This document shows, piece after piece, positions 2,428-5,651 of a DNA stretch of 46,597 bases. This DNA comes from an uncultured Solirubrobacteraceae bacterium (lineage in GTDB: Bacteria; Actinomycetota; Thermoleophilia; Solirubrobacterales; Solirubrobacteraceae): the NCBI GenBank assembly GCA_964588985.1, contig CAZPQW010000025.1, forward strand, positions 1-46,597, written 5' to 3'. The notes below the pieces were generated by a model. It had not been told where the DNA came from. It saw only the letters and a program-made list of their open reading frames with translations, and did no database searches. A program made the translations under genes and the position numbers. Within the stretch, counting starts at the first letter, position 1. Each line of letters opens with the position of its first letter.

Positions 2428-3231
2428 GTGCCCCTCCCCCGCAAACGTCTCCTCGCCGCTCTCACCGCACTCATCTGCCTGGCCCTCGTCGCGATAGCTC
2501 CGACGGCTGCGTCGGCCACGATGCGACACCACCACGCTCGCTCGAGCTGCGCACGCTCCGCCGCTGCCGGCCAGCGCGCCCACGGCGCGGTCCGCGGCTG
2601 CCGCACGAGCGTCCACAGGGTCCGCGGCGCCCACCATCCCAAGACGCCAACGGCGCACAAAACCCCTGCCAAAGCGCCCAGAACGAAGATCGCCAGCGGC
2701 CACGAAAGCTCCGCCAACGAATCCGCCGCGAAGATCGCCCAGGTCCTCGCCACGCCCTGTCAGAACACCGAACTGACCCCTGAAGCAGGCAACCTCCCGC
2801 TGGTGCGCGCCGCGGTGCTCTGTCTCGTGAACCAGGAGCGCGCCCAGAACGGCCGCAACCCGCTCGCGCTCAGCCCGTCTCTCGAACAGGCCGCCGAAGG
2901 CCACTGCACAGAACTCGTCGCCGACGACTACTTCGCGCACGTCTCGCCCAGTGGAGAGACACCCGTCCAGAGGATCGACGCCGCCGGTTACATACCGAGC
3001 CCCAGCGACGGGTACGCCATCGGCGAGAACCTCGCGTGGGGAACGCTCAGCCTCTCCACCCCCAAGGCGATCGTCGCCGCATGGATCGCCTCCCCGGGCC
3101 ACCTCGCCAACATCCTCGAAAGCCAGTACACAGAAACTGGGATCGGCGTCACGCCCGCGGTGCCAGCATCGCTCGGCGAAGGCGAGCCCGGCGCAAGCTA
3201 CGCGCAGGAGTTCGGCGTCATCATCCACTGA
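2428..3231 (+). CDS. Secreted CAP/SCP-domain protein
   Basis: N-terminal signal peptide. CAP motifs LCLVNQERA, YFAHVSP, GENLAWG, WIASPGHLANIL. Confidence 0.88.
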   Translation: MPLPRKRLLAALTALICLALVAIAPTAASATMRHHHARSSCARSAAAGQRAHGAVRGCRTSVHRVRGAHHPKTPTAHKTPAKAPRTKIASGHESSANESAAKIAQVLATPCQNTELTPEAGNLPLVRAAVLCLVNQERAQNGRNPLALSPSLEQAAEGHCTELVADDYFAHVSPSGETPVQRIDAAGYIPSPSDGYAIGENLAWGTLSLSTPKAIVAAWIASPGHLANILESQYTETGIGVTPAVPASLGEGEPGASYAQEFGVIIH

Positions 3232-3309
3232 TCGCCTTCGCGAATTTCGCCTCCTCGTCGTCGCGGTTCGCTACTCTGGCTGGACCAGAGAAAGGAGGTG
3301 GTCCAAACG

Positions 3310-3354
3310 TTGAGTGACAGTTTTTCCGGGACCCTGGAGGTGACCGGCCGTTAG
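3310..3354 (+). CDS. Putative 14-aa micropeptide MSDSFSGTLEVTGR
   Basis: TTG start lies just downstream of the very strong SD AGAAAGGAGGTG; TAG stop at 3352-3354. Confidence 0.45.
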   Translation: MSDSFSGTLEVTGR

Positions 3355-3471
3355 GTCGGTAGGCTGGTCCGCCTAGCGGAATCCAACCCGGGACACCCCG
3401 AGACGACCGCCGGTACTGGTCCCTCCGGCCGCTGTTTCGTCGCTCTCGGTTCTTTCCAGTCAGCGCAGCAA

Positions 3472-3513
3472 ACGAGGGGCGTCGTAGGGCAGGCGCCCCT
3501 CGTCCTTTCTCCT
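3472..3513. terminator. Probable bidirectional intrinsic terminator
   Basis: ACGAGGGGCGTC-N8-GGCGCCCCTCGT stem. Followed by CCTTTCTCCT on + and by TTTG on - (just past the HNH stop). Confidence 0.7.
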
Positions 3514-3529
3514 AGAGGCCGAACGCCGA

Positions 3530-4126
3530 CTAAGCAGCTTGCGGCAGGTATTGGAGCCACGCCGCCGGGATCGTGGGGCTCGCCACGTGGATGAAGATCT
3601 CCGCCCGTGGCGTGCGGGGCGTGTGCCGCGGGTGCATCCCCGCCTGCTTCGGCAGCCGGTCGCCCTTGCGGCGGTTGCACGGCGCGCACGAAGCCACGAT
3701 GTTCTCCCAGTTGGAGCCGCCACCCTTCGATCGCGGGATCACGTGGTCGACCGTGAGGTTCGAGCGCGACCCGCAGTACTGGCACGTCCAGCTGTCGCGC
3801 GCGAACACCGCCCGCCGCGTGATCTTGCGCCGGTGGGCGTCCCTCGGCACATTCACGTAGCTCACCAGACGGATCACCACCGGTCGCGCGAGCGTCGAGC
3901 TCTCCGAGTGCAGCTCCCAGCGCCCGCGCTCCAGCAGCTCGGCCTTTTCCTTCAGCAGGAGCACCACCGCGCGCTTGACCGTGCACACGTTGATCGGCTC
4001 ATACGTGGCGTTCAAGACAAGCACCCGGCCACCCATCGCCCGGTGGGGCGATGCCTCAGGTCCGTGCCGCTGGTGCTCTGAAGGCGACACGAACCCCACC
4101 GGCTCGGGTGGGACTGTGCTCTCCAT
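3530..4126 (-). CDS. HNH endonuclease (McrA-like)
   Basis: [11 protein letters not shown]-terminus, [44 protein letters not shown]. The start could instead be the ATG at 4036. Confidence 0.92.
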
Positions 4127-4185: not shown

Positions 4186-5100
4186 TCAGCTCACCGCTAC
4201 CCTGGGGCGCGCGGCCGAGTGGTACGAGCCCAGCACACGCACCTCCTCGCAGCGCTCTCGCAGCCCCGCGATCGCGTCCGCGACCGGCGCCTGCGAACTG
4301 CTGCCCGCAAGGTCGATGAAGAACATGTAGGTCCCCAACCGCCCGCGCAGGGGGCGCGACTCGATCCTCGTGAGGTTGATGTCCCTGCGCGCGAACTCCT
4401 CCAGGCAGCGCAGCAGCCAGCCGGGCTGCTCAGCACCAGGTCCCCAGAACACGAGCGATGTCTTCCACTCGCCGGTCGCATGAGCATCGGCGAGCGGCGC
4501 CCGCGCACTCTCTCCACGGCGGGCCAGCCACACGAAGCGCGTTTCGTTGTCGTCGCGATCCTCCACGCCCTCGCGCAGGATCGTGCCACCGTAGATCCTC
4601 GCCGCGAGCGCCGTCCCAAGCGCCGCCTGATCGGATCTGCCCTCACTCACCACCGTCCGCACCGCCTCCGCCGTCGAGCTCGCCGCCGCCACGCGGGCGT
4701 GCCCCAGCTCGCCGCGGAGGAAGCGCGTGCATTGTCCGGGCACCTGCGGGTGGGTCAGCACGGTCTGGATCTGCGCGAGATTGACGGGGCCCGCGGTGAT
4801 CAGCGAGTGGCGCACGCGCACGAGCGCCTCGCCGACGATCTCCACGTCGTCCGGCTCGCCCGCGAGCAGGTCCAGCGTCACCACGATCGACCCCTCGAGC
4901 GAGTTCTCGATCGGCGCCACCGCCCAGTCGACCTCTCCGCTGCGCAGCGCAGCCACCGTCTCGTAGATGCCGGCGAGCCCCACCGGCTCGACCGCGCCCT
5001 CCGCCGCGCTCCCCAGCAGGGCCTCCTCCGTGAAGGTGCCCTCCGGTCCCAGGTACCCCACCCGCGCCCGGCCGGTAGGCGGCTCAGGCGGGATGCTCAT
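4186..5100 (-). CDS. pheA: Prephenate dehydratase
   Basis: [26 protein letters not shown], and ACT domain with [10 protein letters not shown] and LGSY. ATG at 5100 overlaps the end of the upstream gene. Confidence 0.95.
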
Positions 5101-5617
5101 CCCCGGCCGCCTCGCCGCCGCCCGCGATCGCCAGGCGCACCGCCTCGGCCTCCTCCGGGGACAGCTCCAGTTCGCCCCGCCCCGCGAGCACCTGCTTGCC
5201 GTAAACGCGCGCCTGGTCGCGATGGTGGATGCACGACAGCACGATCCCCGACTGCTGGTCGTCGAGCAGCGCGATCGACATCGACTGCTGCCCGGAGAGC
5301 TCGTTGTAGGCGTCGTAGCGCACGAGCGAGCGGTGGGCGATCGCCCCCCGCAGCGCCGCCTCCGCTCCCGCCAGGCGGCCGTCGAGGCGCAGCGCCATCT
5401 CCTCGACATAGTCGCGCAGCGCCTCGAACGCCTCCTGCATCGCTGCCGCGTGGGCCACCAGATCCTGGTCCTCGCGCTCGCCGAGCACCGTCCGCTGCGC
5501 GCGGCGCAGCCGGCGAACGGACATGCTCAGCGCGACGCACCCCAGCAGCGCTCCCAGCGCCAGCGCGACCGCCGCGATCGCGACGATGCCCTGGGTGTCG
5601 GTGATCGACGTGGCCAT
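5084..5617 (-). CDS. DUF4446-like membrane-anchored protein
   Basis: N-terminal TM helix, coiled coil, and VRYDAYNELSGQQSMSIALLD...YGK...LSPEE pattern recognised as DUF4446-like. Confidence 0.75.
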   Translation of the reverse strand: MATSITDTQGIVAIAAVALALGALLGCVALSMSVRRLRRAQRTVLGEREDQDLVAHAAAMQEAFEALRDYVEEMALRLDGRLAGAEAALRGAIAHRSLVRYDAYNELSGQQSMSIALLDDQQSGIVLSCIHHRDQARVYGKQVLAGRGELELSPEEAEAVRLAIAGGGEAAGDEHPA

Positions 5618-5651
5618 CGTCACAACTTAGCCGCTGGACTTAGACAGGTTC

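Follow-up and report, generated by a model that had tools for sequence, protein, structure and literature searches.

A divergent Ms_IGR-5 small RNA of Solirubrobacteraceae as a putative ribosome-engaging transcript with a short reading frame

What use could a bacterium have for a small RNA (sRNA) whose 5' end is a complement of the 3' end of its 16S ribosomal RNA (rRNA)? The question is raised by the intergenic region 3232-3529, which lies between convergent genes and hosts such an RNA in a contig of an uncultured Solirubrobacteraceae bacterium (assembly GCA_964588985.1, contig CAZPQW010000025.1; "the window" is this whole stretch of 46,597 nucleotides (nt), to whose forward strand all positions refer). 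A preliminary description made from the letters alone had placed here an independently transcribed, structured RNA of ~230 nt with a 17-nt anti-16S extended Shine-Dalgarno (SD) sequence and a 14-codon open reading frame (ORF). It had assigned the RNA to no known family, and had put forward a cmscan of Rfam, in which a match would take away the novelty, and a check of frame conservation among homologs. As judged by sequence comparison, the RNA is a divergent member, of the Thermoleophilia/Solirubrobacterales branch, of the known Actinomycetota-wide Ms_IGR-5 family; it is thus not a new kind of element, and the branch itself is new. Its conserved parts suggest that it may act by engaging ribosomes.

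A member of the Ms_IGR-5 family below the Rfam cut-off

The cmscan of Rfam was run, and 3284-3455 (+) matches RF02471 (Ms_IGR-5, 'Actinobacteria sRNA') over positions 1-184 of the 184-position model, with 30.7 bits and an E-value of 2.8e-5. This match was found with E-value reporting, the curated gathering cut-off of RF02471 being 45 bits; at the Rfam gathering thresholds there was no match anywhere in the window. The claim that no known family fits is thereby withdrawn and, on the terms of the preliminary description itself, so is the novelty of the RNA. The RF02471 model recovered one full-length sub-threshold copy in each of the 24 same-genus genomes sampled and one copy among 16 genomes from the rest of the order, and it matched 20 of 151 genomes across the class (own genome included; one match, L045, is false by inspection) and 50 of 151 across the phylum, 19 of them above the cut-off and the best at 185.6 bits; these tallies for genus, order, class and phylum take in four unpublished genomes, the sequences themselves being left unused. 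The copy of a same-family genome (L028 in G130) scores 45.5 bits, above the cut-off, and aligns with the window RNA over its whole length. From the other side, a profile of the Solirubrobacterales copies matches 27 of 36 loci of other lineages, with E-values down to 5.7e-15, and these 27 include members with Rfam scores of 77-186 bits. Two matches of the covariance model, L027 and L045, were dropped as false positives without the SD block and were removed before the counts of the extended SD, the ORF, the second SD-like box, the enclosure of the stop codon and the pseudoknot given below.

Ten members aligned to the Rfam consensus keep the same order of parts. Reading from the 5' end, the window RNA shares with the family a 5' AC, a purine-rich GGAGGUGGUCC, a short ORF, a GAGGUG box and a stop codon in a hairpin, followed on the 3' side by an AAUCC linker, a CACC box and a long hairpin with a GUCC loop; presence as a single copy per genome and the phylum Actinomycetota are also common to both. 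It differs from the model in being without helix P1, in a middle hairpin of 7 nt instead of 26, and in an extra conserved terminator hairpin past the model end, and its host belongs to the class Thermoleophilia, mostly uncultured soil bacteria, and not to the Actinomycetes. The Rfam threshold misses the whole Thermoleophilia branch; an exact scan of named genome records for the 5' motif returned at least 120 stretches, at least 120 public genome records carry it, and among the matches listed nearly all are labelled Solirubrobacterales, Solirubrobacteraceae, Conexibacter or Thermoleophilia.

Ms_IGR-5 was reportedly first recovered as an sRNA cloned from Mycobacterium smegmatis, by Li et al. in 2013. 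It has since stood for years in Rfam without a function, and the window extends it, below the cut-off, into Thermoleophilia. In the excerpts of the papers naming Ms_IGR-5 no function is reported, and ncRv0812-type names gave no literature matches. The Streptomyces sRNA scr4389, considered as a possible synonym, was dropped: the available extracts do not link it to Ms_IGR-5, and the orientation of its flanking genes differs.

The 16S tail complement and the short reading frame

The RNA and the features of its 5' part are these:

3284-3512, + strand: small RNA of ~229 nt, its 5' end placed at the onset of conservation and its 3' end at the terminator
3289-3305, + strand: extended Shine-Dalgarno sequence SD1, AGAAAGGAGGTGGTCCA, a predicted complement of the whole free 16S 3' tail
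3310-3354, + strand: mini-ORF of 14 codons from UUG to UAG (TTG...TAG in the DNA), the UUG 11 nt past GGAGG
3336-3343, + strand: second SD-like box SD2, GGAGGUGA, inside the mini-ORF

The part of 16S rRNA that lies 3' of helix 45 is its free tail. No 16S gene is present in the genome's own assembly, and the 3' end was taken from same-genus genomes, in four out of five of which it reads ...CTGGATCACCTCCTTTCT; the fifth (L201, genome G023) was out of register and was left out. Against this end all 17 positions of SD1 pair, one of them through G-U, in agreement with the match first proposed from a typical 16S end. SD1 had also been described as far longer than any other SD of the window, and this holds on a larger scale, since it is the longest contiguous complement of the 16S tail on both strands of the 3.4-Mb genome (17 pairs), the runners-up being one site with 15 pairs and seven with 14; the 16-mer with at most one mismatch occurs once in the genome, and its reversed control 0 times. 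Of the 71 homologs found with the Rfam model, at least 69 can pair at each of positions 1-16 of SD1, whereas 54 can do so at position 17 and 15 at position 18; the complement thus covers the free tail and then ends. Changes between A and G are confined almost entirely to positions opposite U, and positions opposite C stay G in 70-71 of the 71. SD1 spans nucleotides 6-22 of the RNA, starting 5 nt from the presumed 5' end; its duplex with the 16S tail is predicted at -30.8 kcal/mol, compared with -7.0 for the GGAGG core, and opening it in the folded RNA would cost 14.3 kcal/mol. Since the complementarity is kept across the phylum, binding of 30S subunits or ribosomes by this RNA is plausible, and for two mycobacteria, M. 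abscessus and M. smegmatis, excerpts of one study record footprints of ribosomes on the homologs of Ms_IGR-5 (PMC4974804).

Two minor observations were made along the way. The L201 16S match is 3 nt longer than the others and scores lower (1513 versus ~1570 bits), for which an insertion close to the 3' end, or a fault of assembly there, may be responsible. The eight genomic sites with 14-15 pairs are of the GGAGGTGATC type (e.g. C1:174111, C9:50426, C23:39256 and C20:45020), which suggests that some ordinary genes of this bacterium employ long SDs like GGAGGUGAUC.

The proposed check of the reading frame among homologs came out in favour of the frame: an ORF in frame with the same conserved stop, and starting 5-13 nt past GGAGG, is present in 62 of the 71 Rfam-found homologs, the window among them, with lengths of 10, 12, 13, 14, 15 or 17 codons. 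In that interval, and in that frame, the start codons are distributed as follows:

canonical starts, 47/71 homologs: UUG 39, GUG 4, AUG 4
near-cognate starts, 15/71 homologs: CUG 9, AUC 5, AUA 1
start-less copies, 9/71 homologs: all in the window's genus, where they make up 9/25

Of the canonical start triplets found in the spacer, 47 share the frame of the conserved stop and 2 do not, and 118 further relatives found by pattern give a similar picture (75 canonical, 32 near-cognate, 11 none). The peptide, on the other hand, is not conserved, and only residues encoded by the GAGGUG box and its surroundings recur. This box is present in 189 of 189 sequences, the 118 pattern-found ones having been selected for it. 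Among the 75 copies listed, SD2 lies 9 nt from the stop, or 8 nt in family f7; in this family GAGGUG is read as Gly codons (GGG) and the ORF is kept in a shifted frame. Since both the changes of length and the frame shift of f7 keep the ORF while the peptide varies, selection appears to act on an ORF reaching this stop and on a nucleotide box, and not on the peptide. The predicted duplex of SD2 with the 16S tail amounts to -20.5 kcal/mol. No published statement was found of the full-tail complement, of the conservation of the ORF as a frame only or of the fixed distance between SD2 and the stop, in a search that had the founding paper and the supplements outside its range.

Fold, ends and expression of the RNA

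The remaining features of the RNA gene are these:

3272-3277, + strand: -10 promoter box TACTCT (TAnnnT), conserved at a fixed distance
3300-3333, + strand: hairpin H1 of the RNAalifold consensus, GGUCC (3300-3304, the 3' end of SD1) with GGACC (3329-3333), start codon in the loop
3343-3360, + strand: hairpin H4, ACCGGCC with GGUCGGU, stop UAG (3352-3354) at the loop
3368-3380, + strand: hairpin H5, UCCGC with GCGGA, 83% of cells paired
3394-3397, + strand: CACC box, a tetramer resembling an internal anti-SD, kept by all lineages immediately 5' of the long hairpin
3398-3449, + strand: long 3' hairpin (Rfam P3) with apical loop UACUGGUCCCU, showing covariation
3472-3512, + strand: intrinsic terminator from the terminator scan, a stem of 12 base pairs (3472-3503) and the U-rich tail CCTTTCTCCT

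All the elements named in the preliminary description, that is TACTCT, TGGACCA/TGGTCCA (3281-3287 and 3299-3305), the 17-mer, the ORF, the long hairpin and the terminator, are found where it had put them. Its first hairpin stands as far as the letters go, with the reservation that TGG 3281-3283 is variable and probably untranscribed; likewise the helices of its three-way junction are present (CCGGG/CCCGG, TGGA/TCCA, ACCGGCC/GGTCGGT and TCCGC/GCGGA), and the outer pair of the closing helix is canonical in 41/155 sequences, which speaks against that part. The fold of 3272-3513 is mildly better than those of shuffled sequences (z -2.06, 6/200 as good); with so modest a z-score thermodynamics alone is insufficient, and the case rests on conservation.

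Pair counts were taken from a structure-blind alignment of 33 Solirubrobacterales sequences (A1), which was preferred to a MAFFT alignment of 155 sequences that is too noisy for H4, H5 and the middle of the long hairpin. In it the structure model pairs 87.2% of cells, as compared with 35-47% for slid partners, and 18 pairs show changes on both sides, a number reached by 0 of 500 shuffles. The long hairpin, whose GUCC loop motif is present in the Rfam consensus, has changes on both sides in 8 of its 10 outer and middle pairs and in 2 of its 5 inner ones, and the terminator in 6 of 11 pairs, with 92.5% of cells paired. H4 is paired in 92% of cells, with compensatory changes from C-G to U-A and from A-U to U-A, and of 150 distinct local folds of relatives, 141 enclose the stop codon by pairing; an alternative longer helix, CCGUUAGG/CCUAGCGG (3348-3355/3372-3379), corresponds to Rfam P2. 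The variation of H5 falls mostly in its 3-nt loop, with zero double changes. H1 is 100% paired and nearly invariant in the 33 sequences, and streptomycete members carry a shifted or changed version of it, AUCCGA/UCGGAU; it competes with a junction helix (3326-3330/3387-3391), and both vary too little to choose between them. The CACC box, which the Rfam consensus gives as ..AGuCACC.., is paired by RNAalifold with GGUG of SD1 (95.5% paired, invariant). If the 3' half of SD1 is paired with GGAC and CACC as modelled, only its 5' AGAAAGGA would be left free as a toehold. A pseudoknot between GGAC (3329-3332) and the GUCC loop (3420-3423) was also considered: flanking pairs occur in 21 of 41 distinct cognate triples versus 33% of non-cognate pairs, the picking of the loop having often caught the AAUCC linker. 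In one streptomycete copy (L053), GGAU is found with AUCC in SD1 and also, in the cmscan alignment, in the loop of the long hairpin.

The ends of the RNA can be placed from conserved signals. TAnnnT keeps its distance in 25 of the 26 homologs aligned, the exception being L008 with TTCAAT, and actinomycete members have TAnnnT, together with a TTG-type -35, at this distance from the conserved 5' AC. A scan for an E. coli-type consensus promoter found none, as expected for this phylum. Conservation sets in at A3284, 7 nt past the -10 box, and in nhmmer spans ~3252-3511 among 26 loci, and the terminator is seen in every inspected Solirubrobacterales homolog. A scan for transfer RNA (tRNA) and transfer-messenger RNA genes found none. 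The opposite strand, whose sequence looks like a 16S 3' end, was rejected as the coding strand given that the Rfam match, the -10 box and the terminator are all on the + strand; it is further disfavoured by several G-U pairs of the helices, which would become C-A, and by a poorer fold (z -1.33). The terminator tail CCUUUCUCC (3504-3512) itself resembles a 16S 3' end and pairs with the RNA 5' GAGAAAGG (3288-3296) in the minimum free energy fold. This pairing is probably incidental because the tail is not conserved in relatives, and the 5'/3'-end pairing of the window's minimum free energy fold, which relies on it, was set aside.

As for expression, the assembled contigs of four metatranscriptome runs, each from a different study, fall on 3294-3454 and leave 3000-3269 uncovered; the summed depth rises to ~18,000 on the RNA, compared with ~50 at most on the convergent HNH gene and 0 on 3000-3269. 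One contig of 169 nt covers 3296-3454 with 1 other letter, followed by 10 loose letters. The shares of the sequencing runs are small (0.05-0.13) and four runs were used, and the contigs are only a hint of the abundance of the RNA. Elsewhere in the family, excerpts of two studies describe Ms_IGR-5 as validated by RNA sequencing in S. lividans (PMC8079986) and as an sRNA transcription unit in S. avermitilis (PMC8780764). The fixed-distance -10 box, the covarying terminator, the strand-specific G-U pairs and the metatranscriptome contigs together support the independent + strand transcript of ~230 nt that had been proposed.

Proposed ribosome engagement, its rivals and the gene neighbourhood

How, then, may the parts of this RNA work together? 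An SD of maximal length at the 5' end, a start codon that is usually weak, a short and arbitrary ORF and a second SD lead us to the view of an RNA occupied by ribosomes, and we hold it to be somewhat the better bet that Ms_IGR-5 is a ribosome-engaging mini-ORF RNA for which ribosome occupancy matters and the peptide does not. That the RNA binds 30S subunits, that it is translated in the Solirubrobacterales lineage and that either has a consequence is what we infer from these features. In the sequence of events that we propose, transcription would proceed from the RNA's own -10 box, starting near A3284 and ending at the terminator near 3512; SD1 (nt 6-22) would capture a 30S subunit through the entire single-stranded 16S tail, more tightly than any messenger RNA (mRNA) of the genome; binding of the subunit would open the small hairpin that holds the UUG start, and the mini-ORF of 10-17 codons would be read. 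The ribosome would halt at the hairpin-embedded UAG, which would place the second GGAGGUG at an initiation-like spacing behind the peptidyl (P) site, and the halted ribosome could then re-pair its anti-SD with SD2, the 8 nt from GGAGG to the P-site codon being a distance that suits the spacing rule of initiation. Occupancy may protect the 5' end of the RNA from 5'-dependent nucleases in the manner of a STAB-SD, and/or it may switch the fold of the downstream domain, the two consequences being non-exclusive.

The STAB-SD is reportedly a discovery of Agaisse and Lereclus, who described it in 1996 in the cry3A mRNA. Excerpts of a review present this element of Bacillus thuringiensis as a 5' stabiliser (PMC4113751). 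The window RNA resembles it in having a 16S-complementary, SD-like sequence near the 5' end (nt 6 of the presumed transcript), which could bind 30S subunits and block 5'-to-3' decay, and in that RNase J (555 bits, cut-off 400) is encoded in the same genome. In contrast to the non-initiating STAB-SD, the window RNA and its homologs with an in-frame start at SD spacing (62/71 in all) could initiate, and the element is here part of a stand-alone sRNA with a complement of 16-17 nt, and not an mRNA leader. Four features remain constant when such distant members are compared, namely a 16-17 nt full-tail complement at the extreme 5' end, a mini-ORF kept as a frame only, SD2 at a fixed distance before the stop and a covarying 3' hairpin; together they make a concrete and testable hypothesis of ribosome capture by a conserved sRNA, the family being present also in mycobacteria and streptomycetes, where genetics is available.

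Several observations weigh against ribosome engagement or weaken its footing. The window scores under the Rfam cut-off, and Rfam's helix P1 (GGUGGU/GCUGCC) is non-canonical in it. The A/G variation of SD1 opposite U equally fits a plain purine-rich motif. The start codons are mostly weak (UUG in 39 of 62; CUG, AUC or AUA in 15 of 62), and 9 of the 25 same-genus copies are start-less at the usual spacing with the rest of the RNA intact, so that translation may be dispensable; moreover, kin are not independent, and the frame counts overstate the number of evolutionary events. The pairs GGUCC/GGACC of H1, GGUG/CACC and UGGA/UCCA never vary, so covariation is neutral on the helices that a ribosome would switch. 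Finally, metatranscriptome contigs pool relatives, lack strand, ends and true level, and may contain carried-over DNA.

The main rival is that the RNA acts as a decoy or 'parking' RNA that titrates or stores free 30S subunits by their 16S tail and may protect this tail, its weak start and SD2 retaining the subunit. It would be to ribosomes what 6S RNA, a decoy for RNA polymerase, is to that enzyme; the analogy is with a widely conserved housekeeping RNA that mimics the nucleic-acid ligand of a core machine, the target here would be the 30S subunit, and the two RNAs are unrelated in sequence and structure. A complement that spans exactly the free tail and ends there, a duplex far stronger than initiation requires, start codons that are weak or missing, an SD2 kept at the nucleotide level whatever the frame, a single copy across the phylum amid unconserved neighbours and the high summed depth of the metatranscriptome contigs would all be expected of such an RNA. 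A pure decoy, however, needs no ORF, and the in-frame ORF survives length changes and a frame shift; one RNA per subunit would demand a very high abundance, which the contigs cannot gauge; and no precedent was found in the titles and abstract openings of the literature on anti-SD, sequestration, 30S and mycobacteria, which is not proof of absence. We consider the decoy unlikely. In a fuller version of the proposal, which strikes us as doubtful, Ms_IGR-5 would serve the whole phylum as a housekeeping RNA by storing, protecting or metering free 30S subunits, for instance around entry into or exit from dormancy, and the mini-ORF and SD2 would load and retain the subunit; if true, ribosomes would have an equivalent of 6S RNA in bacteria as far apart as mycobacteria, streptomycetes and soil Thermoleophilia.

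Three other explanations are less likely, namely base pairing through a seed, a functional micropeptide and a cis-acting role. As a base-pairing sRNA, the transcript would use its purine-rich 5' end or the GUCC loop as a seed for pyrimidine-rich or GGAC-containing mRNAs, the likeness to an SD being a by-product; one possible role would be to free SDs that internal anti-SD sequences keep masked. A 5' stretch that is single-stranded and does not vary, and an apical loop motif that is invariant as well, are typical of seeds, the gene is independent and has its own terminator, and the family was reportedly first recovered as an sRNA (Li et al. 2013). Against such a seed stand the conserved reading frame with its start codon at SD spacing, a complementarity that ends exactly with the 16S tail, and the ribosome footprints on homologs in the excerpts of PMC4974804, and we regard this explanation as quite unlikely.

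It is improbable that the RNA is a micropeptide gene, i.e. an mRNA that achieves high expression of a functional peptide of 10-17 residues by its very strong SD, as the preliminary description had also allowed. The part of that idea that stands is the frame kept family-wide at the correct SD spacing (62/71), and a C-terminal (T/R)-x-E-V-x-x-x recurs in most lineages; the peptide itself fails, its N-terminal residues and length varying freely, its conserved 'EV' being the GAGGUG box conserved at the nucleotide level and read in another frame, as GGG, in family f7, its start being absent from 9 of 25 same-genus copies, and the conserved, structured two thirds of the RNA lying 3' of the stop. In the dual-function sRNAs SgrS/SgrT, RNAIII/hld and SR1/SR1P the peptide is conserved and functional. 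The window RNA is like them in uniting a short ORF and a structured non-coding part in one small RNA, and unlike them in that the peptide of its family is not conserved, with no sign of purifying selection outside the GAGGUG residues.

Whether the RNA could act in cis depends on its neighbours, which in the window are the following:

2428-3231, + strand: CAP-domain (CAP/SCP) protein gene, upstream of the RNA and 3' of gyrA
3530-4126, - strand: HNH endonuclease gene (Pfam HNH and HNH_5), convergent to the RNA

In the window's order gyrA lies upstream in 36 of 73 loci and the convergent HNH gene is a neighbour in 33 of 73; other lineages have different neighbours and a varying orientation of the downstream gene, an arrangement that favours a stand-alone, trans-acting gene over an attenuator. 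The mycobacterial neighbours are, to judge from their translations, probably PabC-like and YgfZ-like genes. Leader-peptide attenuators such as the erm-type leaders and the whiB7 upstream ORF combine a strong SD and a very short ORF with a stop by hairpins and a terminator. The window RNA shares with them the strong SD, the tiny ORF, the small importance of peptide identity and the stop beside hairpins and terminator; it differs in that no co-oriented downstream gene is present in the window, the next gene being convergent there and in 33 loci, and in that the RNA is conserved independently of its neighbours. It is thus very improbable that the RNA is a leader-peptide attenuator, an element in the 3' untranslated region of the CAP gene or of gyrA, or an antisense regulator that reaches the HNH gene by read-through, for all the resemblance of its short ORF, hairpins and terminator to erm-type or whiB7-type leaders and the synteny of gyrA, RNA and convergent HNH gene (36 and 33 of 73 loci), given the differing neighbours and orientations outside the window's order, the convergent next gene, the conserved -10 box of the RNA itself and the lack of any metatranscriptome contig linking it to the upstream gene.

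Some further observations concern the neighbourhood itself. The CAP/SCP protein has a signal-like N-terminus, and its gene, between gyrA and the RNA, is a variable insertion present in 11 of the 36 loci with gyrA upstream. Across loci with both RNA and HNH gene downstream of gyrA, the HNH protein keeps 65-95% amino-acid identity; it is unusual to see a nuclease that is mostly regarded as mobile kept as a chromosomal single-copy gene beside gyrA. In three loci of f7, which is another family of the class (L035, L036 and L037), a tRNA-like sequence (..GCCCCCATCGTCTAG.GG..), recognised by eye, follows directly 3' of the RNA terminator, and this candidate tRNA gene is a further sign that the neighbourhood is not conserved. 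Beyond the HNH gene of the window lie a prephenate dehydratase gene with PDT and ACT domains (4189-5409, -) and a gene for a DUF4446 protein (5087-5623, -); the ORF list contains long overlapping alternative frames there, as is typical of high-GC DNA.

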